In this document: piece by piece, positions 1 to 62,689 of the stretch
How the letters are laid out: each line of letters starts with the position of its first letter
Numbering within the stretch: position 1 is the stretch's first letter
IMG/VR virus record: IMGVR_UViG_3300033121_000983
Location: 42,167-106,166 of that record
DNA length: 64,000 nt
DNA from: a virus
Lineage: Duplodnaviria; Caudoviricetes
Reading direction: 5' to 3' (one strand)
Position numbers and translations under genes: made by a program
The notes under the pieces: model-generated
What the model saw: the letters and a program-made list of their open reading frames with translations, nothing else
The model's database searches: none
What the model was told of the DNA's origin: nothing

Positions 1-1
1 T

Positions 2-1024: not shown

Positions 1025-1029
1025 TTTCC

Positions 1030-1041
1030 TTTGACGTTAAA
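1030..1041. promoter_or_regulatory. Palindromic site TTTGACGTTAAA (copy at the convergent gene junction)
   Basis: Exact match to the recurrent TTTGACGTWAAA motif; lies between two convergent stop codons. Confidence 0.6.
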
Positions 1042-1753: not shown

Positions 1754-1781
1754 CGTAGCGCATCCGTAACGAGTTGGCGGC

Positions 1782-2159: not shown

Positions 2160-2275
2160 CTTTCAGACTCCTAATAGACTTGCGCAAATTGCGCTTAACC
2201 ACAGTGTAGCTGCCCGTACGAACAGCCGCAACGGCCGATAGCTAAAGCGAAGGCCCCTGGTAAGAGAAAGCCGAC

Positions 2276-2512
2276 GGCTAACCGTCCTGCTGAACGAAGC
2301 TGTAACGCGCTCATGCTTGAAGAATTAGCGCCGCGGTTAAGCGGAACTATTTCAACAAACATGAGCCACGTCAACAGCTTCGTCCAACAGGACGATAGCC
2401 AGAAACACGACGCAAGCCGGCACTTAGAAACACCTTCGCCGTATTCGGTGTATTCGGCGAAGCCCGCCCGCGAGCGGAGCCTTAGACACTGCCCCTAGGT
2501 GCCGGCGTTGCG
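2276..2512 (-). ncRNA. Candidate structured non-coding RNA (long rod hairpin plus branched domain)
   Basis: 2276-2400 is an interrupted inverted repeat (GGCTA/TAGCC, CGTCCTG/CAGGACG, ACGAAGCTGT/ACAGCTTCGT, GCTCATG/CATGAGC, TTGAA/TTCAA, CCGC/GCGG). 2411-2512 is closed by GCCGGCACTTAG/CTAGGTGCCGGC and contains an internal CTTCGCCG/CGGCGAAG hairpin. Confidence 0.4.
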
Positions 2513-44659: not shown

Positions 44660-45889
44660 CTAGGTGGCGTCGAGTGTCAGGGCGGTTCGGTTGCCGTGCA
44701 CGTCGCAGGTTGCGGTGATGCGCGTCTTGCTGTCGTCGGCAGCGCGTAGGGTCAGCGTTTCCGAAGTCTCGGAACCTGTAGCACCTGCCAGTTTACCAGC
44801 TAGTGCGGCCAGCAGCAGCCGCAAAGTCTGCTCGACCGTGTAGCCGTCGACATCGCCGGCTGCCAGCAGCGCATCGGGAATTGCGGCGACGTTGGCCGAC
44901 GTAGCGACGCCGGCGGACAAGTTATCGAGGTAACCCGCGCGCAGCGCGGTCAGCCGGCTAAGCAGAGCCGTTGTATCGGCCAGGATCTGTGCGACTTCCG
45001 TGTCGACGTAGTTGCCGATGGCCGCGAGCGTAGACTGCGTGGCCAGCCCGAGCTGGATCTCCGCCACCGCGTCAGTCGCAAGCGCTGCGGCCGTTAGCGT
45101 ATTGCTCGCCATGGCGCCGACGCTCGCGTCCATTCGCCCGCTGACCAACGCGGCAGGGATGCGCGCTTGTATGTCCTGAGTGTCCGTTTCAACCGCCGCC
45201 ACGTTACCGACCGAGGCAACGTTACCGGTGATGTTGAGTTTATCGAGATAGCCAGTACGCGTTGTTGTGACCCCCGCGTCCACCAGCGCCGCGTCGACTT
45301 CTGCGTTAACCGCAGCGGCGCTTAGGTCGTTAAGCGCGCCAATCGCCGCTAATGTTGCGTCGTCGGCGCTAGCAAGCGCAGTCGCCAGCTCCGAATTAGT
45401 CGGGAGATCGTCCACGCTGGTTTGCGAGGCGCGCGCGTCGAGAATCAGATCAAGGCGGCCGCCGTTGGCCCAGTCGGTCTGCAGTTCGTTAGTATCGCTC
45501 TCGATTGCTGTGGCCTGCGCGACCGTTGCCGGCGCGTAGTCAGGCTGGGACGCTACGAGCCTAGCGGGCACTGCCGCCACAGTGAACGAACCCAGGCATT
45601 TGGTCGGCGTGATGGTACCGTCGACAGTGACGGTCGCGAAAACGAGGTAAGTTGCATCGGCGGCGAATGTCGGCGACGTCACCTGAAAATAGACTTCGTA
45701 GCACCCACTGACGTAGCCAGAATCCGACAGCCGCGTAGCTGAACCGCTCAGCACCGGAGCCGCGCTACTGACAGCCCCACATAGGCGCACGTCGTACATG
45801 GCGCCTGTGCCATCATCGGCCGACCCGTCTGAGGCGTTGACGCCAAAGCCGAATGCAACGTAATCGTCGATTTCAACGTTTTTGTGCAT
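44660..45889 (-). CDS. Ala-rich fibrous virion accessory protein (409 aa)
   Basis: Repetitive helical segments (LDLILDARASQTSVDDLPT, YLDKL, YLDNL); ends RITATCDVHGNRTALTLD. Confidence 0.55.
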   Translation of the reverse strand: MHKNVEIDDYVAFGFGVNASDGSADDGTGAMYDVRLCGAVSSAAPVLSGSATRLSDSGYVSGCYEVYFQVTSPTFAADATYLVFATVTVDGTITPTKCLGSFTVAAVPARLVASQPDYAPATVAQATAIESDTNELQTDWANGGRLDLILDARASQTSVDDLPTNSELATALASADDATLAAIGALNDLSAAAVNAEVDAALVDAGVTTTRTGYLDKLNITGNVASVGNVAAVETDTQDIQARIPAALVSGRMDASVGAMASNTLTAAALATDAVAEIQLGLATQSTLAAIGNYVDTEVAQILADTTALLSRLTALRAGYLDNLSAGVATSANVAAIPDALLAAGDVDGYTVEQTLRLLLAALAGKLAGATGSETSETLTLRAADDSKTRITATCDVHGNRTALTLDAT

Positions 45890-47813: not shown

Positions 47814-48242
47814 CTACGCAGCCGCTTGCTGCGCGTCGAGAACGTGCAGCAGGACAGCGGCCTGCGCGATATTCGGGTTGGCTTGCACGAGTTCCGCGGC
47901 TTTCTGGTAGGCCAGCCGCTGATTTTGTTGCTGCTGCATGCCGGTCACGCCGTACAGCTGATCGACAGCAGTCTTGAATCGATTCGGGGCTGCAGCGGCC
48001 TGCTTCGTGGCCTGCGTGCCGTAAAGTTCTTCGTCGGGCACCTGGCTGATCATTTCGGCAGCCTGCAGCAGCGAGGCAGCTTCAGCTTCACTGTTGGCGG
48101 CGAAACCGAGCGAGGCCATCTTCTGCAGGAACGCCGGGACGAAAACCTCGCGCATCACCAGATCATTCGCCTCGGCGGCGTGTTTCTGCAGATCCGCAGG
48201 GTTCGGAGCAGCCGGCTGTGCTGTCTTCGAGGCTTGGGTCAT
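47814..48242 (-). CDS. Head-module protein, K-x-A rich (142 aa)
   Basis: All 6 Lys are K-x-A (KTA, KHA, KMA, KQA, KTA, KAA); AAGGA upstream. Confidence 0.75.
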   Translation of the reverse strand: MTQASKTAQPAAPNPADLQKHAAEANDLVMREVFVPAFLQKMASLGFAANSEAEAASLLQAAEMISQVPDEELYGTQATKQAAAAPNRFKTAVDQLYGVTGMQQQQNQRLAYQKAAELVQANPNIAQAAVLLHVLDAQQAAA

Positions 48243-48373
48243 GTCAGTTCCTTGAGTGTCAGCCGCCGGCCGGCGGCATCAGTTGTGTCGTGTGCTCTGC
48301 GCTGTCGCAGAGACCGCGGGAGATCACACGGGGCGCACAGTAACACACTGTACGCCCCGCGTAGACCCGACGA

Positions 48374-49315
48374 CTAGACGAAATCCACCGCCGCAACGGC
48401 GTTGGTGTTGGCGATCGTTCCGCCGCCTTCCCAGTACGCGAAGAATTCAAGCATGAATGCCTCACGATGGATGTGCATCGTTGTATCCTCGAGGACCAGG
48501 CTGCGGCCAAGTCCCTTGGGATCTGCGAACATGTAGCACCGGTTGGTCGGAACCAGCGAGCGCTTGATGGTGATGATCCACCGACGTCCCATGAACATCT
48601 GCATGGACCAGCCATCTTTCATGATGTCCTGGGCCATGTCGCCACCGAATTCGTTTCGGCCGAAGGCACAGATGCGCTTGATCGTGATGTTATTCACGAG
48701 GCAGGTCTGCACTTCGAAGTTCGACGAAGTCGAGGGCATGATTTCCAGCATGCGCCAGAGGCCGTTGCGGGTGATCCCGCCGCTGAGCGTCTGGTGCTGC
48801 GCGATACCGCTGAGCGGCACGACGGTGTCGGGCGCCACCATGATGGTGTCGACCGCCGAAATGAACTTGCTATCACGCTCGGCCATCATGTCTTTGATGG
48901 CATTGTCGCTGATCACCTGGCGGATATCCATGATCCAGGTGCGCAGCTCGCTGACGTCTTTCGTGAACCGACGCGTCAGGATGCGGTTGAAGGACACCAT
49001 GAAACGCGGGCCGCGGATGTAGTAGTTCATCGGCAGCATCGCGTACGGCACGGTCACCGCCGCTGGCGAGTTGGGTTCGCGGTCGATCACGACCATGGGC
49101 TTGTCGGTCCAGACGACTCGCGTGAGCTCGTCGTTGGCGATCGGAATCGACGGCAGAATCTGCTCCGCGAACGAATCTTCGCGGACAGTCTGGCGGACGA
49201 ATTCCTGCACGGCCGAGGCGGCTTCTTTGTACCGCATCGGGTCGCCTGAATTCAGGCATTCGTACACCGCGCTGTTGATCAACGCGGTGTCTTGGTCTTG
49301 TAACGTCGCGGACAC
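48374..49315 (-). CDS. Major capsid protein, HK97 fold (encapsulin/linocin-like size, 313 aa)
   Basis: REDSFAEQILP, IRQVISDNAIKDMMAERDSKFISAV (spine helix), FMGRRWIITIKRSLVPTNRCYMF, YWEGGGTIANTNAVAAVDF; GAGGAG RBS; follows scaffold and decoration genes. Confidence 0.8.
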   Translation of the reverse strand: MSATLQDQDTALINSAVYECLNSGDPMRYKEAASAVQEFVRQTVREDSFAEQILPSIPIANDELTRVVWTDKPMVVIDREPNSPAAVTVPYAMLPMNYYIRGPRFMVSFNRILTRRFTKDVSELRTWIMDIRQVISDNAIKDMMAERDSKFISAVDTIMVAPDTVVPLSGIAQHQTLSGGITRNGLWRMLEIMPSTSSNFEVQTCLVNNITIKRICAFGRNEFGGDMAQDIMKDGWSMQMFMGRRWIITIKRSLVPTNRCYMFADPKGLGRSLVLEDTTMHIHREAFMLEFFAYWEGGGTIANTNAVAAVDFV

Positions 49316-49389
49316 TGTTTATCTCCTCTGACCTGCCGCGGGGCAGGTGCTGATGGTTGTGTGAACGGCTAGCAGTTCGCGTTAGCGGA

Positions 49390-49980
49390 CTACGAAGCCA
49401 GCTTGGGGAAGAACATCGTCCACAGCGACAGGATGCTGCGTCCGGCTGCGTTGTTGGTCACCGGATGCGAGACGATCCCGATCACCGGCTCCGCACCTGC
49501 GATCCCGCCGGTGCAGCGCGTAATGCGTCCACCGGTGGTTTGATTGGTGTCGGCGGCGGTGGCGGTGAGCGCATCGCCCGGGTCGTAGGTGTCACCCAGC
49601 GAAGCTTCCGACTGAAACTCAGTCGTTTCGACTTCGAACGTCTGCAACCCGACGAGGCAGTTCAGGCCAATGCCGGCCGTGCCGCGCGGGGCGTTGATCG
49701 AGCTGTAGATACCCGTTTCGGTTGCCGGATCGCCACCGTCGAGGGTGATATCCGGATCGTCCGAATTCGAGAAGTTCCACATCGGCGGCCGCATCAGGTA
49801 CTGCGTGCCCACCACACCGGTCTTGAGCGTTCCGTCGCTGTGCAAGTGCAAGCAGCGGCCCGCATAGACCGTAATCGTCACATCGGCGCTCAGTCGCGCC
49901 TGGTGCATCACAGCGTGCGGAGCCGGCCATGCCGACTTGGGGTTCAAGCTGTGAGCTTCCATCTGTCGTTCAGCAACCAC
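49390..49980 (-). CDS. Putative capsid decoration/cement protein
   Basis: Directly upstream of the MCP; EVETTEF...TYDPGDALTA...VIGIVS pattern; AGGAGAG upstream. Confidence 0.6.
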   Translation of the reverse strand: MVAERQMEAHSLNPKSAWPAPHAVMHQARLSADVTITVYAGRCLHLHSDGTLKTGVVGTQYLMRPPMWNFSNSDDPDITLDGGDPATETGIYSSINAPRGTAGIGLNCLVGLQTFEVETTEFQSEASLGDTYDPGDALTATAADTNQTTGGRITRCTGGIAGAEPVIGIVSHPVTNNAAGRSILSLWTMFFPKLAS

Positions 49981-49998
49981 GTTTCTCTCCTATCGATG

Positions 49999-50019
49999 TT
50001 GTTGACGTGTCGTCAACAA
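49999..50019. other. Perfect 9-bp hairpin TTGTTGACG-TGT-CGTCAACAA
   Basis: Intergenic inverted repeat just upstream of the decoration gene RBS. Confidence 0.5.
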
Positions 50020-50039
50020 GGCTGTTGTTGTAAATCGCG

Positions 50040-50486
50040 TTACCGCACGCCGGCCAGCTTCAAGAGTGCCTCAGACCGCCGGGCGACCACCGGGTCGCTC
50101 ATGTTGCGCGGAGCCCCGCAGACGAACAGACCGTCGGCCGAGCCTTCAGCCTGGGTCGAGGCCTGCTTGTCGTAAGTTCCGCTCGTCGGAACGCCGGCGC
50201 CAAGCGACGCGGGTTGAGCCGCCGCTTGTTTCTGCTGGTGAGCCACCACGTTCGCCAGGATCTGCTGCAACGACGCGGGGTCAGACAGCTGGGTCACCGC
50301 GGCGGCTTTCTGCGTCGGCGCAATCAAACCCGCTTGCACGAGTTGATCGGCCAACGCCGGCGCCTGCGCGGCCAGCTTCTGCTGCTGCTGCGCAGCCTGG
50401 CGGATGTGTTGCTGCGCTTCTGCGAGCGCTTTCCCGGTCGTCGCCACGTAATTGGCGAGCTTCTCGGGGTCGTGAACCGATGCCAT
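50040..50486 (-). CDS. Small scaffold-like protein, K-x-A rich
   Basis: Gln/Ala-rich helical; 6 of 7 Lys are K-x-A; GAGGAG upstream. Confidence 0.7.
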   Translation of the reverse strand: MASVHDPEKLANYVATTGKALAEAQQHIRQAAQQQQKLAAQAPALADQLVQAGLIAPTQKAAAVTQLSDPASLQQILANVVAHQQKQAAAQPASLGAGVPTSGTYDKQASTQAEGSADGLFVCGAPRNMSDPVVARRSEALLKLAGVR

Positions 50487-50532
50487 GTCTATTCTCCTCG
50501 TCCGCGTGGACGCTGTTTGTGTGGAAGTACGG

Positions 50533-51852
50533 TTAACCGCGGCTCAGTTCACGCACGTACGCATTGAGCGCAGCACGCTTCGCCTGGGCCCGCTTACTTG
50601 CGGACGCCGCGCCGTACGCAGCGGCCTTGAACTGATCGGGAGTGGCCTGCTGTTCCTGCAGCGCCTGCAGCAACATCTGCAGCACTTCAGGCGGCAGGTT
50701 CGCCAGCGGGTCTTCTCCGCCAGGTGCCCCGCCGAGTGCGGCTTCCATTCCCGGAGCGCCGCCCATACCGGGATCACCACCCATGCCGGGATCGCCGCCC
50801 ATCATGGGGTCAGCGCCCATCTCGGGAGGAGGTGCGGGCATGCCTGCGCCTGGGTCCATACCCATGCCAGGATCACCGCCCATAGCGGGGTCAGCACCGC
50901 CGAGCATTTCTGCCAGCGGATCACCGCCACCGCCGCCGCCGTCGACCGGAGGAGGCGCGGAAGGTCCTGCAGCCGGAGGTGCGCTACCGCCACCACCGCC
51001 GCCGCTTTCTTCCTTCTCTTCCTTCTCCTCGCCGGACTCTTCCTTCTTCTCGTCGTCCTTCGGCGGCTCATCGCTGGCCAGTTTCCGCGTCCGCCCCGCC
51101 GCTTTCGCAGCCGCCGCGGGCTGCGCGTTAGCCCCGGCGTTCAGGTGCTGAAAAAAATCTTGCAGGTAGTACGCGGTCTTCTCCGCGCACTGCTCGGCGT
51201 AGAGGATGGTCTGGTGCAGCACATCAGCGGCAACTGCTTCTGCCTGCTTCTGCAGATCAGTAGGGGACAGCGCGGCTTCGGCCGCGGCTGCACCTGCGGC
51301 AGCTGCCTTGGCGAGCGGAGCCTGCGCGGGCTGCGTACCAGCGGAGACGATCGATTCCGCCAGCAATTCGCGGCCGAGCGATTCCGCCTGCGCGAGATTC
51401 GCGAAGAAACCGGCGTACTTGCCGCCGTTCAGCGAATCGTTGTCCGTCCGCGCGGGGTGGGAGCTGGGTCCGTTGAAGCCACCGTCTTCCTTGGTGTCTT
51501 TCGTCGAAGACGTTTCGATTGAGGCGTCTTCACCGGTCAGCGACTGATGCGTGCCGATGTTCGGCTGCACCGAATCGAGGCTCGGAGCCGCGCTGGCACT
51601 TTCGACGCCGGCCGTTCCCTGCTCTTCCTTCACCTGCGCCGAGTTTTCCGCGTCGCGGAAACCGGTCGTCGCCGGCTGCGTACCGTCGTCGACATTCTTC
51701 GACGGATGTGTGGTGGTCTTGTTGTCGGCGTTCTCGTCGACGCCGGCATCACTGGCGAGCTTGTTACGACCAAGCGATGCCAGCATTTTCTCGACGGTGT
51801 TTCGCATCTGCGCGAGCTTCACCTGCTGCGGAGGTTGCAGAGTTGGACTCAT
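50533..51852 (-). CDS. Prohead scaffold/core-like protein
   Basis: Between protease and capsid genes; low-complexity acidic and GGDPGM segments; many KLAS/KQA/KAA motifs. Confidence 0.65.
   Translation of the reverse strand: MSPTLQPPQQVKLAQMRNTVEKMLASLGRNKLASDAGVDENADNKTTTHPSKNVDDGTQPATTGFRDAENSAQVKEEQGTAGVESASAAPSLDSVQPNIGTHQSLTGEDASIETSSTKDTKEDGGFNGPSSHPARTDNDSLNGGKYAGFFANLAQAESLGRELLAESIVSAGTQPAQAPLAKAAAAGAAAAEAALSPTDLQKQAEAVAADVLHQTILYAEQCAEKTAYYLQDFFQHLNAGANAQPAAAAKAAGRTRKLASDEPPKDDEKKEESGEEKEEKEESGGGGGGSAPPAAGPSAPPPVDGGGGGGDPLAEMLGGADPAMGGDPGMGMDPGAGMPAPPPEMGADPMMGGDPGMGGDPGMGGAPGMEAALGGAPGGEDPLANLPPEVLQMLLQALQEQQATPDQFKAAAYGAASASKRAQAKRAALNAYVRELSRG
50710..50925 (-). repeat. GGDPGM/GADP Met-Gly-Pro coding repeats
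   Basis: GGDPLAEMLGGADPAMGGDPGMGMDP...GGDPGMGGDPGMGGAPGM. Confidence 0.75.
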
Positions 51853-52023
51853 GTAATTTGGATCCTCGTGTTGTTACTGCCCGCCCTGTCGTTGTTCGGG
51901 CGTGCGGAAAGTTCAATCTGCGCTCGTGTCCGTTTTGCCGCAACAACGCGCGACGCGTTGATTATTGTGCGACGTAAGTCGTCACAGGTCAATCTGGTTT
52001 GATCTGCGTCAAGTAGAAATTCG

Positions 52024-54624
52024 CTACGCCGCGAAGTTCTGGAGCACAGCTAACTGGCACAGCGTGGGGAAATCGGCATCAGCAACGCACGCTGCCAGCG
52101 TCGCCACTTTGTAAAGCGCGTACTGTCGCGCCAGCCCCTCTGCGGCTGGCGAAACATCACGCACACCTGGGTTAAATCGCGTAGGCGTGTGGAGCACCGA
52201 CATCTGTGCGGCGCGCTTCACGTTCTCGATTGTCAGCGGCGCTTGTGGCAGCTGCGCAAGCTTCAGTGACGCGCGTTTCACGACGTACGGGTTACGCGCG
52301 AGCAGCTCATCCATATCGGCAGCGAACAACAACGAGCTGAAAGCGTGCGGCACCGCGGCGAGCGCATTGCGGATACCGGCCGTCTTCTCAGCATCCTCGC
52401 CTGCTGCCCAGGTGAAAAAGTCTCGCGCAGACAGCAACGTGCGGGATTGCTGCAGCACTGCCAGCGCGGGTTCGAACTGCAATCCCGCGAATTGCACCGC
52501 ACTGGCGAGCTTCGTCACTCGTAACTGTCCGACACCCTGCAGCAGCCCATTTTCCTGTGCGGTCAGTGGGCGACTACGCAGCGTCTGTTCGTATGCGGCC
52601 AATTTCGGCAGCACGTACAGCTGCTGCGACAGCGCATCTTGATCGGGCGGCAGATACTGTTCGGCCAGTTCGGCGCCGCCCATGACGTTTAGCAGTCCGG
52701 CTTCCTTGAAGTACGACGCCAATCCGCCGAACGCAATACGGTCGGCGTGCGTAGGAACTTCCGAGATGTCGAACCATTTCGGATTCGGATTGTCGACGTA
52801 CTGCTGAAAACCATCGCTGGCAGTTTTCGTCAACCCGCTACGACAACCGAACCCGCGATAACCGGTCTGCGGATTCACGCATTCCGACTCTTCACAGTAC
52901 TCCGCGCGGGAGCGTGCTTTCTTGCAGCAATTAGCACACTCGTCGTGGCTGATCGAGCAGTTGTGACTGGCCAGACCTGCGAGCGAGTATGAGTGATCGT
53001 CCGCAACTTCGAAATTGTAGGTCTGGATGTCCGTCACGTATCGCCGTTCCACAGCGCGCAGACGGTACGAAGCCTCACGGCCGGACCACGCAATTGTCCG
53101 GCTGCCGTAACGCACGCAGACACCACGACGGTTTCCCGTCAGCGAGTGTTGCCAGCGCTTCTCGCTGTTTCCGCATTTTTGCGAATACTTCACCAGCGCA
53201 CCGGCATCAGCCGGACAGATCGACAGCACGTACTCGACACCATCGGCGTAGCTGCCGTTATTCTTGGAATGCTTGATGCGCCCGATAACGCACGCAAGCC
53301 CAAGCGACAGCAGCAGGTCCCTGGCGCCGTACAGCGCCAGTAAGTTGCAGCTGCTGATGTGGGCGCCTCCGGCGTCCGTCCAACCATCGCCGTCGATCCA
53401 GCGCCCTAGAAACGCCAGTTTCACGGTATCCCGCGCGCCGTACAGGCCGAGTGGCACGCGTTTACTGTGACCTCCGGTGCCGATCAGCTTGGAACAGTAC
53501 GTCGCTAGCGCCGTGCTGCAGAACTGCATCGAGAACGCTACCGCAGAATTCAACTTCGGCTTGATTGTGACTGCCACGTCTGGCCAGTGGTGATTGATGA
53601 CCTCGGCGACGCAATGTGTCGCCCAGTCGTCGCCGTGTGTCGTAAACTCCAGTGTCGACGGCTTCTCTCCGTTGTAACGGATGCTACCTTCGGCCATGTA
53701 CGTTCCGAGAATCTCGGCCAACTCCTCGTTGTCCAGAACAGCTACGCCTGGTACCGCACGATCGGCAATGCACGCCCGCAGGCGATCGCTTGGATTGAAG
53801 TCGCCGGCCGATCCCCACTCGAATTGTGCGTCTAGCGGTTTTGCCTGCCACTCTTCGAAGGCACTACGCGACACCGCCGCCATCGCTTTGGTTGTCAGTT
53901 TGGCGCCTAGCATCGGATGGTCGGCTGTTAGCTCGATGCGCTCCGGCAGTCCTTGTACTTTCCACGACACGACGTCTCCGGTGTAGCGGCGTCGACGCAA
54001 CTCCGTGACAGTTCGCCAGCGTCCGAGGTGTGTCAGCACCTTGTCGCCGACTTTTACATCCGTGATGGGTAGGTAGCCGCGGGACGTTAGCACCGGCGTG
54101 GTCGGGTCGGTAATGCACGCCATGCTGTATTCGACGGGCTTTTCCGCCATCAAGGCGTCGATCGATTCCTGTGGCAGCGCGAGCCCGCCATTGCGTGCTG
54201 CAGCTTTTTCGCTGCCATTGGCGATTGCCAGCAGCTCCACGCGGCGCATCGCTTCGTTGTAGGCCGATTTGATAACCTGCCCATAGCGCTTGCTGGCGTC
54301 TTTGTTGCGGTGGTTGCGGTAGTATTTGGCGTGCTTGACGAAGCTACCGTGATGCTGACGGCACCACGCCTCTTTGAAGCCGTCACCGTTACGATTCGGC
54401 CCGTAGAATTCCGTCGCACCGAGCGCCACGATGTGCACCGGAATATCGCCAGGGCGCAGCTGATGTCGCGACAATTCTTCGGCGAACTCGCGCGCCATCG
54501 CGCGCTTCACCAGCAGCTGTTGACGGTCGTTCGGCCCTAGGCCGTTGTGTGCGACCTTAACGACCTGCACGGGCTGCATGTCCATCGCTGCCCAGCTGCC
54601 GACGCCGACGATTTTGCAAAACAC
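52024..54624 (-). CDS. Prohead (capsid maturation) protease-like protein with Cys cluster, intein-containing
   Basis: GPNRNGDGF, YRNHRN (candidate catalytic His); spliced junction EYSMA|CSISHDECANC gives an SMAC candidate catalytic-Ser motif; WFDISEVPTHADRIA; upstream of scaffold and MCP. Confidence 0.7.
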   Translation of the reverse strand: MFCKIVGVGSWAAMDMQPVQVVKVAHNGLGPNDRQQLLVKRAMAREFAEELSRHQLRPGDIPVHIVALGATEFYGPNRNGDGFKEAWCRQHHGSFVKHAKYYRNHRNKDASKRYGQVIKSAYNEAMRRVELLAIANGSEKAAARNGGLALPQESIDALMAEKPVEYSMACITDPTTPVLTSRGYLPITDVKVGDKVLTHLGRWRTVTELRRRRYTGDVVSWKVQGLPERIELTADHPMLGAKLTTKAMAAVSRSAFEEWQAKPLDAQFEWGSAGDFNPSDRLRACIADRAVPGVAVLDNEELAEILGTYMAEGSIRYNGEKPSTLEFTTHGDDWATHCVAEVINHHWPDVAVTIKPKLNSAVAFSMQFCSTALATYCSKLIGTGGHSKRVPLGLYGARDTVKLAFLGRWIDGDGWTDAGGAHISSCNLLALYGARDLLLSLGLACVIGRIKHSKNNGSYADGVEYVLSICPADAGALVKYSQKCGNSEKRWQHSLTGNRRGVCVRYGSRTIAWSGREASYRLRAVERRYVTDIQTYNFEVADDHSYSLAGLASHNCSISHDECANCCKKARSRAEYCEESECVNPQTGYRGFGCRSGLTKTASDGFQQYVDNPNPKWFDISEVPTHADRIAFGGLASYFKEAGLLNVMGGAELAEQYLPPDQDALSQQLYVLPKLAAYEQTLRSRPLTAQENGLLQGVGQLRVTKLASAVQFAGLQFEPALAVLQQSRTLLSARDFFTWAAGEDAEKTAGIRNALAAVPHAFSSLLFAADMDELLARNPYVVKRASLKLAQLPQAPLTIENVKRAAQMSVLHTPTRFNPGVRDVSPAAEGLARQYALYKVATLAACVADADFPTLCQLAVLQNFAA
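52960..54117 (-). mobile_element. Intein with LAGLIDADG homing endonuclease (386 aa)
   Basis: Starts CITDPTTPVLTSRG...; block B LTADHP; LAGLIDADG blocks ILGTYMAEGS and FLGRWIDGDG; ends YNFEVADDHSY...SHN followed by +1 Cys. Confidence 0.92.
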
Positions 54625-54625
54625 G

Positions 54626-55981
54626 TTACTGTCCTTGGCTTACGTGGTTCAGTCCGTACAGCGCTGCAAGTGCTAGCGGGCCGCGCAGACCGCCCATGCG
54701 CCGCGCGTTAATGAGCCTAGACGGGACGGCGCGGAAGGGTGTCAATTTTCCTACACCTGACGGGTGCATCGGCGCACGCAACTGGCCTCCGAGTACGCTC
54801 GGCTTCGTCGCTAACCAGTTAGCGATGTTTTCCGGTAAAATGCTACGCGCAGCCGTTGCGGCCTCGTAGCGAAGCGGCGTGTTAGCGCGGCCGGTGTAGC
54901 CGCGCGAATTGACCAGGTTCTGAATTACGCCGGGATCGATCTTTTGACCACCGACATAGCTCTTCCGGCCGGCAGCCGTGTTGTAAAGCATGCTGCGCAA
55001 CAACTGGTCGCTGCCACCACCTTCTGCGATGGCGCTCAGCGCTTTCAACGTATCGTCTCGGAGTGTCGGCGTAGCGCGCGAACCTGTCAGTACGCCTGAC
55101 AGCCGCTGGTACCACGGACGCACGGCAGCTGGCGTCTTGCCACCTTTTGTACCCGCAGCTGCTTCGATAGCAGCACGCAGCGTTTGCGGATCGTTGGTAA
55201 TCCCGGCCCTGTTGTGCAGATTGTATCGCGTGAGCAGCGCGTGTACTAAGTCAGAACCATACATGGAACCAGCTACCACGCTGCCGACCCCAGCCGCTGC
55301 GTTAGTCAAGTTGGGCTTTGCAGCAGCGTTAGTAAGAGTCTCCCACCCCGTAGTTAGCGGATCGGCAACACCGCGCTGAAAAGTGCCAAGCGCCGTGTTT
55401 TTCGCGCCCTCGGCAGCCGCATCAACGGCTAACGGCGTCAGGTACGGCGCGTTAGCCTGCTCGTTGATCTGCTGATTCAGCTGTTCCGTTTTTGCTGGCG
55501 TGCTCAGGCCGGACAGCATCCCGGGTACATGCTTGGCCAGTGCCATCCCACCGAGACCGAGCCCAGCGCCCATCATCGCGCCGGTACCGAGACTGCCGGC
55601 GAGGTCGCGCTCGTCTTCATCGGGATTGAAGCGGTTAAGCGCTGCCATCCCGAGACCGCCGATACCCGCACCACCGATACCTGCGGCCAGCCAGGGGTAT
55701 TTAGCTGCCCAGCCGCTAACCGCATTGCCGGCGTCAGTGAGATGTCCCGGAATCGCGCCAGCAAATTCACGCACCGGTTCAGGTAGTTTGCCTGCCCAGT
55801 CTTTAACGGTGTTGGTCGCGTTACCCGCCCAGTCCTTGACCGCACCGGTAGCGTTGCCGAGCATTTCTTGCACGTCGGCTTGCTTTTCGACGCCGCTCAT
55901 AGCGCGCAGACGTGCGTTGATATCCGCCAGGTGGAGGATTTCATCGAGGTTCTGCTCTGCGGATTTGTTCAACCAGTCCAT
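54626..55981 (-). CDS. Glycine-zipper protein, putative internal head/ejection protein
   Basis: KSAE and EKQAD in the N-terminal 36 aa; AAGIGGAGIGGLGMAAL and GSLGTGAMMGAGLGLGGMAL hydrophobic zippers. Confidence 0.55.
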   Translation of the reverse strand: MDWLNKSAEQNLDEILHLADINARLRAMSGVEKQADVQEMLGNATGAVKDWAGNATNTVKDWAGKLPEPVREFAGAIPGHLTDAGNAVSGWAAKYPWLAAGIGGAGIGGLGMAALNRFNPDEDERDLAGSLGTGAMMGAGLGLGGMALAKHVPGMLSGLSTPAKTEQLNQQINEQANAPYLTPLAVDAAAEGAKNTALGTFQRGVADPLTTGWETLTNAAAKPNLTNAAAGVGSVVAGSMYGSDLVHALLTRYNLHNRAGITNDPQTLRAAIEAAAGTKGGKTPAAVRPWYQRLSGVLTGSRATPTLRDDTLKALSAIAEGGGSDQLLRSMLYNTAAGRKSYVGGQKIDPGVIQNLVNSRGYTGRANTPLRYEAATAARSILPENIANWLATKPSVLGGQLRAPMHPSGVGKLTPFRAVPSRLINARRMGGLRGPLALAALYGLNHVSQGQ

Positions 55982-56020
55982 GCTTATCTCGTTTCACGCG
56001 GTAGTTGGTCGACTAGGCGA

Positions 56021-57412
56021 CTAGGCGAGCACGGAATCTGGCGCGTGCCAGAGCGCCGCTTTCCCTGGGCTGGGAGGCACCTGCCGACCTGGCGGCAGCT
56101 CGCGACGGCCCAGCGAGTTATCGAGCCCGATAATCTGTTCGATGTCGTGCGGATCGAGCTGTCCCTGCTGCGCCAACATCTTCCGCACCAACGGGCGCAT
56201 GATCGCAGGCTGCCCTGACAACCGCGGCCCGAGTGTGGAGAGCTGATTGTAGGAGTCGATCACCTGCGAAGGCTGATAGGTCTGGAATGCGTCGTCGTTG
56301 TAGAGCATGTCGTGCAGCAGCGACTCGGCGTCGATTTTGCGCATATCCGCCATGTGTTCGCCAGATTCGAACTCACTGCGCGCAGCGTTGGCGAGACTGT
56401 CTGGGCTCTTACCGATACCCAGCCCTTCCAGCGCCTGGGTAGCGGCTGCACCGCCCAGCATGCCAGGCAGCAAGCTGGCGGATTTCGTACGCAGCGAATC
56501 ATGATCGACGAGAATGTTCGGTTCCGCGTGCAGCGCGTCGTCGTACGGCGCTAACAGCGTTGCCACCGTATCGGGTAACTGCTGCTGGGCCCGGGTGTAC
56601 TCCGCCTGCTTGTCGTACCAGCGCGACAAGGCACTGATCGCACCGCTCAGCAACTGGTACTGCGGCAACTCAGCGTTGGCGGTCACCAGGTGCGTAGGTG
56701 CATGAGCGTTGGCGCGCTTCAGTCGCTGCTGCGCGGCACCGTCGACTTGCGTGGCGACGTAATCCAGCACCGGCGCGGCCATCGAACCGCACACGTCACC
56801 GCCGTAGGTGTCCAGCTCAAGAAACGCGTCGACGAAATTCGGTTGCCGCCGCACCCAGCTCGCCAGTTTGCCGAAGGCCGTGAACGCAGCGTCGCGGGTG
56901 GCGTAGACCTCCGCCTGTAGCTGATCGACACGACGCATCGCTGCTTTGCACTGCCCCAGCGCTTTCTGCACGGGCGGCTTACTGGCCGTCACGCTAGGCG
57001 CTGCCGTGCGGGGTTTGAGCGGCGGAATACCAGCGAAGGCGCGCTTTTCCCGTGCGGGCTCCGCGATACGCGGCGGGCGGCTGTAATCGGCGCTTACAGC
57101 TGTCTTGTGGTGTTGCTGCGACGGCGTTTCTGGCGCAGTGCCGAACACCTCTGTAATTGCCGCCTGTGCGTCAGCGAGATCGTGCTCCTGCAAGCGATCG
57201 ACCAGCGTGCTAGCACTCTTATGCGACGCAATTTGCTCGCCGATGTTGTAGGCCTGCGCGGTCAGGCGCATCATTTCTGACGGGAGCTGCAGCTCTCGCG
57301 CAGTTTTAACGACGGCCGCTGTCGGTGCCAGTCCTTCGTTGACGTACTGCTCGACAAGCAGCGCCGCTTTGCTCAGCGTATCCGCGGCAGATTTTGTCAT
57401 GCGTTGCGCCAT
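56021..57412 (-). CDS. Head-module protein, K-x-A rich (463 aa)
   Basis: KSAA, KAAL, KTAR, KSAS, KTAV, KRAF, KAAM, KLAS, KRAN, KQAE, KSAS. Confidence 0.7.
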   Translation of the reverse strand: MAQRMTKSAADTLSKAALLVEQYVNEGLAPTAAVVKTARELQLPSEMMRLTAQAYNIGEQIASHKSASTLVDRLQEHDLADAQAAITEVFGTAPETPSQQHHKTAVSADYSRPPRIAEPAREKRAFAGIPPLKPRTAAPSVTASKPPVQKALGQCKAAMRRVDQLQAEVYATRDAAFTAFGKLASWVRRQPNFVDAFLELDTYGGDVCGSMAAPVLDYVATQVDGAAQQRLKRANAHAPTHLVTANAELPQYQLLSGAISALSRWYDKQAEYTRAQQQLPDTVATLLAPYDDALHAEPNILVDHDSLRTKSASLLPGMLGGAAATQALEGLGIGKSPDSLANAARSEFESGEHMADMRKIDAESLLHDMLYNDDAFQTYQPSQVIDSYNQLSTLGPRLSGQPAIMRPLVRKMLAQQGQLDPHDIEQIIGLDNSLGRRELPPGRQVPPSPGKAALWHAPDSVLA

Positions 57413-57413
57413 G

Positions 57414-58424
57414 TTACTCGTCTTTCTCTACAGCCGAGACGCGTTCTTTGCGTTGTGCGGCGGGTAGTTGGTGAGCCTTAGCCGCTGCGACCAATTCCGG
57501 GAGTTCTTCGCCCGCTGCCAGTCGATCGGCCTCGATTGCTGTGAGCCCGTAAGGTGATGACCGCAATTCTCGCTCGGATTGCGGCACGTTGTCGACGTCA
57601 CTTGGTCCGATTTTCCACTGAACGGCTTCCAGCAGCCGTCCGGCCATCTCGCACAGCTCACGCATCGGCCCTGCGGTGCCACCGCTCGCCAACCGTTCGG
57701 TCTGCTGCAGCTCGAGTGACTTCAGATTCAGTTCGATCATCCGCATGACGTTTGAGGGGCGTGGTTCCATGGCGTGCGACAACAGCGCGCTGGTGCGCCG
57801 TAGCAGCGAGCGGAACGCATTATCACACCATTCACGAAGCCGGTCAGGCGTTACCGTGTCGCGCCGTTCAAAACCCGACAGCGCGTACATGAGCGCCTGC
57901 TCGCCGCCGAAATAGGCGAACACGCGGTAGCAGGCCCAACGGCGCTCGTCCGTCAGTAGTGGCGAATCACGCAAGGTTGAGCCGCCGCGCGAGTCTCCCA
58001 GTGCGGTGCGCAGGATGTAGGACATGTTATTCAGCCGGTCGCGCACGTTGTAGAACAACGCCTCGTAGGCCTCAACAGCCGGCAGGTAGAGGTTCTCGCG
58101 TACGGCAATTTCGTCAAGCGGCAACTCTGTCAACAACAGCGACTGCAGCGTGACCGTGAAGTCGTCGGCGGCATCGGCCCAAGTCTTGGCGTAGTAGATG
58201 TCGGGGTAGTTGTCGAACAACCGCTGCCGCTCGGACTGCAGTCGGTGCTTTCGCCACTGCCGGTAAAAGGTCGCGTACCGCGCCATCCACGGGTCTGTAT
58301 CACGACGTGACGTGCGTTTTGCGGTCACGCGCTCTTCAATGATTTCCGCACGCCAGTTCAGCGCTCGATAGGGATCGAACTGCTGCCGCGCGATTTTAGG
58401 ATGATGTAGTCGTGGTGCGGTCAT
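57414..58424 (-). CDS. Basic hypothetical protein, possibly DNA-binding (terminase small subunit is one possibility)
   Basis: Arg-rich; HTH-like LPLDEIAVRENLYLPAVEAY; lacks K-x-A motifs unlike its neighbours. Confidence 0.55.
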   Translation of the reverse strand: MTAPRLHHPKIARQQFDPYRALNWRAEIIEERVTAKRTSRRDTDPWMARYATFYRQWRKHRLQSERQRLFDNYPDIYYAKTWADAADDFTVTLQSLLLTELPLDEIAVRENLYLPAVEAYEALFYNVRDRLNNMSYILRTALGDSRGGSTLRDSPLLTDERRWACYRVFAYFGGEQALMYALSGFERRDTVTPDRLREWCDNAFRSLLRRTSALLSHAMEPRPSNVMRMIELNLKSLELQQTERLASGGTAGPMRELCEMAGRLLEAVQWKIGPSDVDNVPQSERELRSSPYGLTAIEADRLAAGEELPELVAAAKAHQLPAAQRKERVSAVEKDE

Positions 58425-58433
58425 AGTTCGGTC

Positions 58434-58874
58434 TTAGTAAACCCCGACGACGGTCGCGGCGACGTCGTATTCTCCGTCGGCAGTCGCGGTCAGTTCCAGC
58501 CACAGCTGTGACTTTTCGAGACGCGCGTCGCCGTTGTAAGTCTCGTCCGCGTTGCGGAAATAGCCTTCAAGCCCGTACGCGGCAAGCACGCCGTTCGACC
58601 CCGACTGCGTCGCAACGATACGATGTGCTTCCGGAGACAGCAACACCAGCGGGTCCGATGTATCATCGTCGACGCTGTCAGCGTTGATGCCGGCAGCCTC
58701 CTCGCGATCGTACACGTTTGCCGTGATCGTCACACCAGAGCGCGTATCGACCTTCGCTACAACCAACGACACCAGGCGCCCGTGGTGCTGCGTACCAAGC
58801 GCGAACAGCTGCGCGACACCGGCGGCATCGACGGTCACGCGTTTGCGCGTGACGTGAACAAGTAACTGACCCAC
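58434..58874 (-). CDS. Hypothetical beta-rich protein (146 aa)
   Basis: GGAG upstream of the GTG start. Confidence 0.7.
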   Translation of the reverse strand: MGQLLVHVTRKRVTVDAAGVAQLFALGTQHHGRLVSLVVAKVDTRSGVTITANVYDREEAAGINADSVDDDTSDPLVLLSPEAHRIVATQSGSNGVLAAYGLEGYFRNADETYNGDARLEKSQLWLELTATADGEYDVAATVVGVY

Positions 58875-58885
58875 GGTGTACTCCG

Positions 58886-61393
58886 TTAGTTATTGGAGAT
58901 TGAGCTGTTTTCGCCCTGCTGCTCGGTCGACACCGGCGACAGGTCTTTTTCTTCCAGCATCAGCAGCAGTTCGTCAAGCGCTTCGAAGTTGTTCAGCAAC
59001 CCATCTTCGAGCGCCGGCAAGTCCGAACGGCCGACACGTGCCTCGAAATCGTCGTTGTGCCAGTAGAACTTGAAGATCAGGCTGCCGAGCGTATCGACAG
59101 CACCAGCCAGCGAGCTGACGTCGTCTTCGTCGATCACGCTACGCCGCATCGTGCCCAGCATCGACTGCAGCCCGGCGGCGTCGAAGAGCTCTTTCTGTCC
59201 AGTCTGCGCGGCTTGCTGTGCGTACTGCATCAGCATCGGGTCGGGCATCGCCATCGGATCCATGTTGTACGTGTTGGGATCCGTGGTCTCCTGCGCGCTC
59301 AGTCCCGGAATCGGCTCGGCGTACGTTTCCGACTCCACCACCTGGGGGCCGCTGGGGATGTTAAGCGCCGAGCGCGGTAGCTGTTCGGGGAACGTCGGCA
59401 GGTACATGTTGCTGCCCGACTGTCCCGGCATCAGCACCGACGGCTCGACCATTGCAACCTTCTCGGCCTGGCGCAGCGAGTAACCGAGCAGATCCTGCCG
59501 GGCGCTGGAACCGTAGATGACGCGGAACTCGGCTTTCTTCCCGCGCACGCTGTGATTCGTTACCGCGGTGGCGATCATCGCCCGAGCTTCTTTCTCCGGG
59601 AACCCGTATTCTTCCACAAGCGCAAACAGCGCATCCCGCTGCGAGCGCGGTGCATCTGCGTTAAGCCGGGTTTCGCTGCCGTCGGACCAGACCCGCAGGC
59701 CTGCCGTCTTCTGCGTCAGCGCCATCTGCAACGTGGCGAGATCACCAAGCTGCAGCACGCGCGACTTGGACCGCGTGTCGCTGCAGCAGTCATCTTCGGT
59801 GTCTTCAAGCGTCAGCACCTTGGCCTCGGCCGGACAAGTCAGCACGTTTCCTGTGCTGTAGAACTTGGTTTGCCGTCGATCGGTGAACTGCACGATTTCT
59901 GGCCCGGTGTAGTACCGGCGTTCCGTGCGATCGCGCGGAATACCGGGCAGATACTCTCGAACTGCAGACGATTCGCGCAACGGCTCGTCGTTCGAGTAGT
60001 CGTGGCAGTGCACGCGATATTGCCCGTTCGACAGCACTTCGCGCACGTGGAACGGCACCGTACCTTGACCATCTTCCGTGACGACGCAGTAGACACCGCC
60101 TTCGCGTAGCTCTTTCGTCGCCGGAAGGGCTTCGAAGAACTTACGGTAGTCGTCACGCAGCGGAGACTCATCCGTGCGCACGAACGCCGATGTGGGATAG
60201 CAGTTGATCCAGCTGCGTGGCGACGACAGTCGTACAAGCGTCATCCAGGGGTGACGATCGTAGGTGTCGTACGGGTTACGGATCACCAGCATCTTTTCCA
60301 GCTCACCTTCCGACGTCAGCACGTCGTAGATGCCGGTTTCGCCAGGATTGTGCAGCGCGACATCCTGCACCGTGTTGAACGCCACCGAGTGCTCTTCGCC
60401 GGTACGCCAATCGCGCAGAAGGTAGCCGTCGCGAATCAGCCGCGCGCGTTCGTCGTCGCTGAGCTCACTCATCGTGCGCTCGTTCTCGACTTCGCGGCTG
60501 TACATGATGCGCTGCGTGCGCGGACCTTCGGCTTTCTTGACCGGCCGTGCCAGCACGGATGTGGCTTCGGCAGCCTTGTTAGTGATTTTGTGCGCCCAGT
60601 CCGACGCCAACTTCTGCAGCGCTTCCTTGCCGTAGAAAGCTGTAAAGGCCTGCTTGAGTTGCGGGTAGTTGGCGACCATCTCGGTCAGCACCTGGAAGCC
60701 GTCGAAATGCTTCGCGGCCAGCTTGATCGGCGACGCGTCACAGGCCGGCAAATCGCCGTACGCCAGGTGCGCGACGGTCTGCGGTCCTTCGGCGTTAACG
60801 AACCACTGCGACATCGGTTGCCGTGTCAGCGCGGCTTGCTTGACCACGCGATCCAGCGCCTTATTAGCCGCGCCCAGTTTGCCGAAGTTTGACGGCGGTG
60901 CCGCCAGCGGACGCCAGTTCGGCCAGCGCACGCCTTCGTGCTGTCCGTTGCCGAGGATTCCGCCGCCAGTCGGTGCAGCCCGGAAACGCAGCAACGCGTT
61001 GACGCGCTTTTCCGACAAGGCGCAGAACCGGTTTTGGTTCTTCACGTACAGCAGGTTCTGGCCCTTGATGCGGTTGTTCATGAAGAACATCGGCGCATAC
61101 AGCCACAACGGCTTGTCGTTTCCGCCCAGGCGGAAACCGAAAATGCCCACCGCCTTGGTGTTGTCTTCGTTACGGTCGATCAGCTGGAAACCGACCATAT
61201 GCGGAACCAGCGCGGGTGCGCGATCACGCAAGTAGGTAAACGCCAGTTGCGAGAATGCCTCCTCGAACTGCGTTTCCTGATCCTGGCCGGGACCGGCACC
61301 GCCGTCGGCCTGCTTCAGGCGACTTGCAAGCAGTTGAGCCTGCTTGGCCAGGCGGCGATCGCTGAACCTAACGCCGCAAACTGTGTGCGTCAT
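58886..61393 (-). CDS. Large head-module protein (835 aa), K-x-A rich
   Basis: KQAQ, KQAD, KQAA, KLAA, KQAF, KLAS, KAAE, KTAG, KVAM; globular N-domain and acidic helical C-terminus. Confidence 0.7.
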   Translation of the reverse strand: MTHTVCGVRFSDRRLAKQAQLLASRLKQADGGAGPGQDQETQFEEAFSQLAFTYLRDRAPALVPHMVGFQLIDRNEDNTKAVGIFGFRLGGNDKPLWLYAPMFFMNNRIKGQNLLYVKNQNRFCALSEKRVNALLRFRAAPTGGGILGNGQHEGVRWPNWRPLAAPPSNFGKLGAANKALDRVVKQAALTRQPMSQWFVNAEGPQTVAHLAYGDLPACDASPIKLAAKHFDGFQVLTEMVANYPQLKQAFTAFYGKEALQKLASDWAHKITNKAAEATSVLARPVKKAEGPRTQRIMYSREVENERTMSELSDDERARLIRDGYLLRDWRTGEEHSVAFNTVQDVALHNPGETGIYDVLTSEGELEKMLVIRNPYDTYDRHPWMTLVRLSSPRSWINCYPTSAFVRTDESPLRDDYRKFFEALPATKELREGGVYCVVTEDGQGTVPFHVREVLSNGQYRVHCHDYSNDEPLRESSAVREYLPGIPRDRTERRYYTGPEIVQFTDRRQTKFYSTGNVLTCPAEAKVLTLEDTEDDCCSDTRSKSRVLQLGDLATLQMALTQKTAGLRVWSDGSETRLNADAPRSQRDALFALVEEYGFPEKEARAMIATAVTNHSVRGKKAEFRVIYGSSARQDLLGYSLRQAEKVAMVEPSVLMPGQSGSNMYLPTFPEQLPRSALNIPSGPQVVESETYAEPIPGLSAQETTDPNTYNMDPMAMPDPMLMQYAQQAAQTGQKELFDAAGLQSMLGTMRRSVIDEDDVSSLAGAVDTLGSLIFKFYWHNDDFEARVGRSDLPALEDGLLNNFEALDELLLMLEEKDLSPVSTEQQGENSSISNN

Positions 61394-61405
61394 GCTGGGA
61401 CCCTG

Positions 61406-62689
61406 TTACTTACCGGAGTTACTATAGTACCGTAGTGCTTCGAGTGCATCTGGAAGCAGTGATCGCGGTGCGGGCGTTGGCGGTGTGTACTGCGGCGCTG
61501 GCTGCGTGGACACAGGAACCGGACTGATAGGCGCTTGCGGCGGTGCAACCGGCTGCACAGCGGACTGTGCTTTCGGCTTGGGCGGCGTAACCAATTTTTC
61601 TGCGGCTGCAAGCGCCTTATAGCGATCTGCCAGCTGTTTCTGCTGAGCTTCGTACTGCAGTCGCGCAGTCTCTGCTAGTCGATCACGCGTTTCAACCTGC
61701 GACTGCCCGTAAGGCGTCAATTCAGTGCGGCTGCCGGTAATCGGGCGTGCCGTACCGAGATTCGTCCGGATTGGATCGCCGTAGTCGTTAGCGCCGCGTG
61801 TAAGCCGTCCGCCCTGCAGCCGCGCCATCATCTCCGTTACCGGGCTTGTGAGTGCACTGCCCCACGATTGGTTTGGATCCAGCGCGTTGTCATACGCCAG
61901 GTCGCGCTGTCCTGGCGACATAAACGCCAGTTGGGCTGCGTTAGCCCCGAGCCCAAGCGCAGCGAGCCGTCCCGCTCCTTGGCGTGCGTTCGTTACGCCG
62001 GCAAACGGAAGCGCGGCCACGTGGCCGAGGCCTGTAGCGAGGTCGCGACCACCGGCACCGAGATGATGCAGGAAACCAGAACCCCCTGCCGCTGCGGCGG
62101 GACCTGCCGGCGGTACCGGGCCTACCGGCGGAGGCGCGGTCGCAGGGCCTGCTGGCGCTGGTTTAGCTACAGGGCCTGGTGTCGCGACAGGGTCGTCAAA
62201 ACCCGGCTGGAGCGGGCGTCGTGCGCGTGTCGGAATCTCGCCTAATTGAATAGGCGCATCAGCCGCGGCCGGCGTCGGTCCTTTAACCGGCGCACCCATA
62301 ACCTGCGCTGGCGGAACAGGACCTGGTACCGGTCGCGCCGTGTTCCGCCGGGCGGCGTCTGCCGCCACTTCTTCCGGTGTTGGTACGTACGACCTAAACC
62401 CGCCGCCAAGTTCTGAGTACTGACGGGCAGGCGCGGGCTGTGCAGGCTGCGCTGGCGGAACAGGACCTGGTACCGGTCGCGCCGGCTTCGGCCTAGCTGC
62501 AGCTGCCCAGGCGTCGATATCCACGTCAGGTGAGCGCGGCGGCACGACAGGCGCTTTTGGTGCGCGCTTAAACGTGTTCAACAACCGTCGAAACGGACCT
62601 GGTGCCGCAGTCTTCGACAGCGCTTCATCCAGCTCGACAAGGTCTGTCAAGACCGGGCCCAAGGCTGCGCGTGTGCCGAGTGAGAGCAT
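61406..62689 (-). CDS. Pro/Ala-rich putative internal head protein
   Basis: LSKTAA near the N-terminus; duplicated ARPVPGPVPPAQ (DNA repeat at about 62305-62339 and 62446-62483); hydrophobic Gly-rich central segments. Confidence 0.6.
   Translation of the reverse strand: MLSLGTRAALGPVLTDLVELDEALSKTAAPGPFRRLLNTFKRAPKAPVVPPRSPDVDIDAWAAAARPKPARPVPGPVPPAQPAQPAPARQYSELGGGFRSYVPTPEEVAADAARRNTARPVPGPVPPAQVMGAPVKGPTPAAADAPIQLGEIPTRARRPLQPGFDDPVATPGPVAKPAPAGPATAPPPVGPVPPAGPAAAAGGSGFLHHLGAGGRDLATGLGHVAALPFAGVTNARQGAGRLAALGLGANAAQLAFMSPGQRDLAYDNALDPNQSWGSALTSPVTEMMARLQGGRLTRGANDYGDPIRTNLGTARPITGSRTELTPYGQSQVETRDRLAETARLQYEAQQKQLADRYKALAAAEKLVTPPKPKAQSAVQPVAPPQAPISPVPVSTQPAPQYTPPTPAPRSLLPDALEALRYYSNSGK

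Follow-up and report, generated by a model that had tools for sequence, protein, structure and literature searches.

A Lys-x-Ala motif concentrated in the head proteins of a large tailed phage is probably the cleavage code of its prohead protease

The DNA examined here (the window) is a stretch of 64,000 nucleotides from a tailed virus (Duplodnaviria; Caudoviricetes), positions 42,167 to 106,166 of IMG/VR record IMGVR_UViG_3300033121_000983. It makes up the right-hand end of a virus contig of 106 kb whose CheckV completeness is about 52%; the G+C content is 60%, and the minus strand holds almost all of the genes. Head proteins encoded in this window are strongly enriched in a lysine with an alanine two residues on (Lys-x-Ala, written K-x-A); the enrichment is restricted to head proteins and conserved across a clade of related phages, and the same gene block encodes a protease with invariant Asp, His and Ser residues whose modelled fold is that of phage T4 gp21. 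K-x-A is probably the signal by which the phage's own prohead serine protease recognizes and cuts its substrates. No paper describing a Lys-x-Ala prohead rule turned up in the literature searched.

K-x-A was counted in the translations of 57 curated open reading frames (ORFs), and the null for each protein was drawn from 2000 shuffles keeping that protein's own composition. Seven proteins, namely the product of 56..1024, the 142-, 148-, 439-, 463- and 835-aa proteins and the 866-aa protease, exceed chance (p ≤ 0.0005 in each), and pooled, with the intein described below removed, they hold 76 K-x-A against 18.0 expected (p = 4e-33). An Ala-matched shuffle had been proposed as a check in an earlier reading of this DNA (the original prediction), and the enrichment survives it in every one of the seven. 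A blind scan of 1600 residue pairs at gaps of 0 to 3 left K-x-A as the sole outlier; the next pair, K-x-x-S (2e-4), belongs to this site as well. Related pairs in the pooled head proteins do not follow it: R-x-A is not enriched (17 against 22 expected), Q-x-A and E-x-A are at expectation, K-x-S occurs 0 times against 7.0 expected and K-x-G once against 8.8. Across the remaining 83 ORFs of the contig, K-x-A occurs 87 times against 93.4 expected.

As a positive control, the same blind scan was applied to T4 gp67, gp68, gp21 and gp22. The top two pairs were I-x-E (15 against 5.9 expected) and L-x-E (16 against 7.0), and I/L-x-E is the experimentally known gp21 cleavage rule of T4 (PMC12991175). 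In the head proteins of the window, [LI]-x-E is not enriched (22 where 20.1 are expected; the test concerns enrichment, not cleavage), nor are [SAG]-x-E (40 against 48) and [VLI]-x-A (61 against 73).

The features concerned are given below with their K-x-A fractions, that is, the Lys residues standing in the motif out of all Lys of the protein.

1..1024, plus strand: C-terminal 340 codons of a 392-aa (amino acid) protein rich in K-x-A; the window edge truncates the gene, whose start is at window coordinate -154.
47814..48242, minus strand: 142-aa protein downstream of the capsid gene; 6/6; predicted fragments of 8 to 39 aa.
48374..49315, minus strand: major capsid protein (313 aa, HK97 fold) with one K-x-A, K30-E-A32.
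49390..49980, minus strand: 196-aa protein between the scaffold and capsid genes; 2/3 (K15, K193).
50040..50486, minus strand: 148-aa protein, probably a core or scaffold accessory protein; 6/7; weak PHROG match to the C-terminal part of a protease-scaffold family.
50533..51852, minus strand: 439-aa scaffold-like protein with an acidic Glu/Lys-rich stretch; 11/22.
52024..52959, minus strand: protease C-extein, residues 556-866, comprising a Cys cluster, the remainder of the catalytic domain, a linker and a C-terminal domain of helices; 10/12.
52960..54117, minus strand: Hint and LAGLIDADG intein, residues 170-555, from Cys170 to His-Asn555, followed by Cys556; 1/17.
54118..54624, minus strand: protease N-extein, residues 1-169, with Asp81, His105 and Ser167; 7/11.
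54626..55981, minus strand: 451-aa Gly/Ala-rich protein; K-x-A at K6 and K33 only.
56021..57412, minus strand: 463-aa protein; 12/18.
57414..58424, minus strand: 336-aa protein; 1/9 (K10), chance level; the negative comparison within the module.
58886..61393, minus strand: 835-aa protein; 13/33, with clusters at residues 17-27, 185-286 and 562-645.
61406..62689, minus strand: 427-aa protein; K-x-A at K26, K41, K68 and K176 only.

The counts on which the original prediction was built were all reproduced, including 11/12 for the translation of 56..1024. So were the abundance of the motif that it had described in the 439-, 463- and 835-aa proteins and its N-terminal position in the 451- and 427-aa proteins. 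It had also called the 336-aa neighbour free of the motif, and here the lack of enrichment stands and strict absence does not. The full 392-aa protein has 13/14 Lys in K-x-A, with sites about 10 to 60 aa apart. The gene order, namely protease, 439-aa scaffold-like, 148 aa, 196 aa and HK97-fold capsid gene, is the same in relatives.

Related loci were collected by an alignment-based IMG/VR search, which gave 61 loci with capsid relatives on contigs of up to 235 kb, 60 of them usable. Over the 10 kb upstream of the capsid gene, 57 of the 60 loci (G+C 43 to 70%) have K-x-A as the highest-ranked of 1200 residue pairs. In the 10 kb downstream it is the top pair in none of the 60, in line with the earlier claim that tail proteins are not enriched. 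Of the three exceptions, two loci lack upstream sequence; in the third, which is very rich in G+C, ORF calling failed, yet two head proteins have 12/29 and 13/45 of their Lys in the motif. Among the 253 ORFs of the complete genome of Salmonella phage Arash, gp220, gp225 and gp223 are the three most enriched, and all three are neighbours of protease gp222 and capsid protein gp226; genome-wide, K-x-A totals 260 against 267.5 expected. The head module of Vibrio phage D69 is likewise enriched.

Across these relatives many site positions turn over while their density is kept, and some positions are fixed. Replacement of Lys by Arg is found at 3% for motif Lys against 9% for other Lys. Lower-G+C relatives have many non-motif Lys and the same enrichment. 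The confinement of nearly all remaining Lys to the motif in the present genome is best explained by its high G+C content, which would have swapped most dispensable Lys for Arg.

The 866-aa ORF at 52024..54624 (18/40 Lys in K-x-A as a whole), termed protease-like in the original prediction, is by its modelled fold and invariant residues a prohead protease of the T4 gp21 type. In relatives, intein-free proteins of 440-490 aa align with its exteins; a first search of the family gave 96 matches and no Pfam domain. Structure work was carried out on an AlphaFold model of one intein-free homologue (L004:6097-7425; predicted local distance difference test, pLDDT, 84.6). T4 gp21 (5jbl) supplied the top three Foldseek matches of this model, at probability 1.00, and VIA-align placed model residues 1-212 on 5jbl_B with Z 11.6 and a root-mean-square deviation of 2.8 (143/164 residues). 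Herpesvirus proteases come next at Z about 5, those of human cytomegalovirus and Epstein-Barr virus giving Z 4.9-5.2 over about 117 residues. Asp69, His93 and Ser143 of the homologue are invariant in a 90-homologue alignment and equal Asp81, His105 and Ser167 of the window protease; since Ser143 is Ser167 and the intein runs from Cys170, the intein is inserted two residues after this Ser. In a weak profile alignment (hhalign probability 1.2%), the invariant Ser falls on Ser140 of T4 gp21 and the His lies one residue from His85, Ser140 and His85 being catalytic residues of that enzyme. Nearly invariant in the family are also the acidic residues E60, E117, D153, D203 and D212 (numbering of the homologue), candidates for a pocket that would receive the motif Lys. 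Weak PHROG matches link the protease to 'head maturation protease' families (E = 8e-4), and the family profile had no relevant match among PDB sequences. The protease is a fold-level relative of gp21 and not a sequence-level member of its family. A profile search (E ≤ 1e-3) placed at least 5070 clusters at 50% identity in this family in metagenomes, with no Pfam model.

The intein offers an internal comparison within one ORF, on which the original prediction had already drawn. The exteins have 17/23 Lys in K-x-A and the intein 1/17 (Fisher p = 1.8e-5). Inteins occur in 35 of the best 135 family representatives (about a quarter), at several insertion points. In these 35 homologues the exteins have 396/1253 Lys in K-x-A (114 expected, or 3.5 times expectation) against 50/703 in the inteins (47 expected; p = 6e-40).

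Across the 90 protease homologues, K-x-A occurs 975 times against 316 expected. Two sites are nearly fixed, K30-x-A32 in 82/90 and K220-x-A222 in 84/90, and K40 is kept in 49/50 locus orthologues. K220-x-A222 falls within residues 211-227, the only part of the model that is disordered (pLDDT below 50), a predicted linker that joins the catalytic domain to the helical C-terminal domain. The Cys cluster of the protease (C-x6-C-x2-C-x10-C, then His or Glu; residues 556-585, window 52870-52959) is conserved and begins at the intein +1 Cys, just past the catalytic Ser. Its appearance suggests a zinc-binding insert, and T4 gp21 is without it. One protein of 1268 aa matches the protease family in three stretches.

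The capsid protein, which the original prediction had not identified as such, is 28% identical to the Arash major capsid protein gp226, its model matches HK97-fold capsid proteins only, and its family has 982 matches. K30-E-A32 is invariant in 5 distant homologues (identity down to 26%) and in 48/48 locus orthologues; among closer homologues K30 is kept in 120/120 and A32 in 119/120. The site is located where an N-terminal propeptide site would be expected and is the most telling single site; from its position, a capsid propeptide of about 30 to 32 residues is predicted. Likewise, the 451-aa protein is predicted to lose about 35 N-terminal residues, leaving a mature form of 416 aa. The K36 site of the 463-aa protein is kept in 43/43 orthologues. 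Nine proteins (capsid, protease, 392, 142, 148, 439, 451, 463 and 427 aa) have a K-x-A at residues 20 to 41, which suggests leaders of about 30 residues at head-protein N-termini. The 835-aa protein also has one at K27. A shared leader sequence before the fixed sites of the capsid, protease, 463- and 439-aa proteins was considered; the resemblance is loose and no such sequence is claimed.

In order to describe the site itself, 2661 sites in 454 head-module proteins were compared. Information is limited to seven positions, from two before Lys to two after Ala, and the full site is approximately [F/L/M]-[E/I/V]-K-[Q/T/V]-A-[S/A/E]-[D/A]. Pro is depleted over all seven positions, most of all just after Ala (0.22 times background). 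Lys residues without Ala at +2 have background neighbours, so the flanks are part of one composite motif. Because the sites of T4, phiKZ/SPN3US and herpesvirus proteases specify P3 and P1 and leave P2 free, a cut after Ala (P3 Lys, P1 Ala and a small P1') is favoured by analogy. Truncated homologues and C-termini ending at the motif were examined to place the scissile bond and were uninformative.

A cleavage code of this kind would work as follows. The protease would become active once its intein splices out and would be built into the prohead, with Asp81, His105 and Ser167 as the putative catalytic residues of a gp21-type fold related to that of herpesvirus assemblin. Inside the prohead it would remove short propeptides from the N-termini of proteins retained in the head (about 30-32 residues off the capsid protein, about 35 off the 451-aa protein and up to 178 off the 427-aa protein) and would free its own catalytic domain at two fixed sites. 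The scaffold and core proteins, and finally the protease itself, would be shredded into pieces of about 10 to 50 residues; the shredded set would comprise the 392-, 142-, 148-, 439- and 463-aa proteins and parts of the 835-aa protein. The original prediction that K-x-A is a cleavage motif is indirectly supported, as enrichment, fold, head restriction and fixed sites agreed with it in every computational test run.

Three other explanations have to be weighed. A serious rival, although we think it unlikely to be right, keeps the same protease and substrates and places the cut after Lys, as [F/L/M]-x-K | x-A, with a hydrophobic P3, Lys at P1 and Ala at P2'. F, L or M stands two before the motif Lys in 33% of 2645 sites against 14% in the background, and a hydrophobic residue occupies this position at all four fixed N-terminal sites. 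In several loci L-x-K ranks second for enrichment, and a hydrophobic P3 would be as in T4 and herpesvirus sites. The Val or Ile that follows the capsid Ala would also be atypical as P1'. Against a cut after Lys, Ala at +2 is near-obligatory with no Ser or Gly substitute, which is unusual for P2', and no hydrophobic preference is seen at Lys without Ala at +2. Pro depletion, moreover, peaks directly after Ala, and only with a cut after Ala does the seven-residue footprint lean to the non-prime side.

It is much less probable that K-x-A is never cut and serves as a binding or modification signal, either for prohead recruitment via the capsid interior or the C-terminal domain of the protease, or as a Lys to be modified or cross-linked. 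Enrichment alone shows only selection on mature head proteins, and many sites lie in predicted secondary structure, both of which such a signal would accommodate. Yet Pfam and PHROG scans found no Lys-modifying enzyme conserved in the module, where the protease is the only conserved enzyme; the i, i+2 pattern with a free middle, the Pro-depleted footprint and the small residue after Ala resemble sites of this protease fold; the invariant capsid site some 30 residues in and the site in the disordered linker fit processing better than binding; and site positions turn over freely at constant density. That the enrichment stems from composition or structure, through helical proteins rich in Ala and a genome poor in Lys and high in G+C, or from a DNA-level motif, can practically be dismissed. 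The enriched proteins do have much Ala (16-24% in the small ones) and the G+C content is high, but composition-preserving shuffles reject such an origin, R-x-A, Q-x-A and E-x-A stay at expectation, the signal persists in relatives at 43-50% G+C, and the ORF at 44660..45889, with 20% Ala, has just 1/5 Lys in K-x-A. At the DNA level, AAR-NNN-GCN has 77 matches in the coding frame, 6 and 10 in the two remaining frames and 10 antisense, and this comparison of frames and strands rejected a DNA motif. Since the signal is frame-specific and its codons are mixed (both Lys codons and all four Ala codons), it acts at the protein level.

Several points weigh against cleavage at K-x-A by this protease, or against the position favoured for the cut. 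A six-frame search of the whole contig gave no match to Peptidase_S77 (PF03420) at E ≤ 10, and a search of the contig for Peptidase_S78 (PF04586) gave none at the same threshold. The residue after capsid Ala32 is Val, Ile or Glu and not the Ser or Ala preferred elsewhere, and the hydrophobic residue two before Lys fits a cut after Lys equally well. Several K-x-A sites of the protease lie within predicted helices or strands of the catalytic domain, and therefore not all can be cuttable in the folded state; this placement fits late self-destruction, without demonstrating it. The Arash virion proteome paper gives only coverage and spectrum counts, and its near-complete coverage of the K-x-A-rich proteins neither shows nor excludes cuts. 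For the whole clade, cutting at the motif, the position of the cut and the fate of the fragments are what we infer from the observations above.

T4 gp21 (MEROPS S77) shreds gp22, gp67 and gp68 and also has gp23, gp24 and the internal proteins as substrates; the cleavage code proposed here is likened to that system. Besides a protease of the gp21 fold with equivalently placed Ser and His, the two share the gene order protease-scaffold-capsid and a two-position motif with a free middle residue that is dense in core or scaffold proteins and in the protease itself. They differ in the motif, which is Lys-x-Ala here and hydrophobic-x-Glu in T4, in the missing Peptidase_S77 hidden Markov model (HMM) match, in the Cys4 cluster after the catalytic Ser and the helical C-terminal domain of about 230 aa, in the strength of enrichment (4.2 times here against about 2.4 times in T4) and in the portal gene, which here lies outside the head module. 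To our knowledge, every studied phage example of the gp21 fold cuts after Glu. T4 gp21 has been reported to be restrained by autoproteolysis (PMC12991175).

Large phages with a short repeated motif in many head proteins offer a second likeness. Thomas et al. in 2012 reportedly found that phiKZ gp175 cuts many head proteins after S/A/G-x-E, for the most part taking off N-terminal propeptides, and that it cuts itself. In SPN3US, gp245 cuts many head and ejection proteins at an A-x-E motif, mostly removing N-terminal propeptides, and also cuts itself (PMC10052503). P1 is Glu in both phages, whereas [SAG]-x-E is unenriched here, and no sequence relationship to these proteases was detected.

Herpesvirus assemblin (MEROPS S21) recognizes (V/L/I)-x-A|S, has a Ser-His-His triad and cuts two sites, in its own precursor and in the scaffold. 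It resembles the present protease in its related fold and, if the cut follows Ala, in P1 Ala and P1' Ser or Ala. It differs in a hydrophobic residue where P3 would be Lys here, in having two sites against dozens, and in its triad, the candidates here being Asp, His and Ser. The HK97 gp4-type proteases (MEROPS S78, PF04586) share the general role; the S-M-G/A-F motif around the catalytic Ser of the present protease seems to resemble the S-I-G-F type motif of that family. The HMM of that family found no match here, and the capsid protein lacks a delta domain and is accompanied by a separate scaffold gene.

If true, the Lys-x-Ala rule would be a new specificity for the gp21 protease fold in a widespread clade. 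It would make head-internal and ejected proteins predictable from sequence in mostly uncultured phages of about 200 kb, and would give a concrete substrate rule for a cultured member, Salmonella phage Arash, whose host is S. Typhimurium ATCC 14028. Host defences of the cyclic oligonucleotide-based antiphage signaling system (CBASS) type sense prohead-protease activity via decoy loops (PMC12991175), and other host sensors would be expected to detect a protease whose rule differs.

A broader proposal, that K-x-A is a general and transferable head-cargo code rather than only a trimming signal, is rather doubtful. Under it, the 392-aa product would be a polyprotein precursor cut to about 13 internal peptides of 10 to 60 residues, to be packaged alongside the DNA and then injected into the host, and the motif plus an N-terminal segment of about 30 residues might suffice for head loading and processing. 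Six homologues of the 392-aa protein (P0219-P0223 at 26-33% local identity and P0218 at 80%) have 12 to 14 sites each, in the distant ones despite a Lys content of 22 to 36. Because the homologues keep this number, the protein looks like a many-peptide precursor, and the constancy fits a defined peptide set. Were the cargo code real, the head contents of thousands of uncultured phages would be predictable and heads could be engineered for chosen cargo.

Pfam and PHROG scans of the head proteins returned almost nothing beyond the intein domains and weak protease hints. They assigned no family to the 392-aa protein, for which Protein Atlas gave viral hypotheticals alone; the same was true in Protein Atlas of the 463-aa protein, whose model is of low confidence (pLDDT 0.50). 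The 439-aa protein has orthologues in 42 loci and zero K-x-A sites within its Glu/Lys-rich stretch. The 196-aa protein is a weak case (shuffle p = 0.03), and its K15 and K193 sites are unconserved in orthologues. A 118-aa ORF at window 48259-48615 (minus strand), which shares 240 nt with the 3' end of the capsid gene in a different frame, is probably not a gene.

The 835-aa protein was considered as the portal and rejected, as the homologue of the Arash portal sits at contig 611..2494, outside the window. This homologue shares 23% identity with Arash gp204 across 497 aa. About 90 kb separate it from the protease-scaffold-capsid block, and it is not K-x-A-enriched (1/24 Lys).

Bacillus phage G gp19 (L070) is distantly homologous to the catalytic domain of the protease (28% identity, E = 5e-7). 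K-x-A takes up 8/32 of its Lys, a weak enrichment, and the capsid protein of phage G has none; the code may be weaker or different in that phage. Phage G gp19 has been annotated independently as a head maturation protease (PMC12484599).

Outside the main head module, Arash gp242 (L010:2889-3758) and a D69 protein (L002:32496-33347), both of about 285 aa, have similar N-termini. No homology was detectable between the 392-aa protein and these outlying proteins. Both are K-x-A-rich, with 8/23 and 10/20 Lys in the motif, respectively, and gp242 has been detected in virions.

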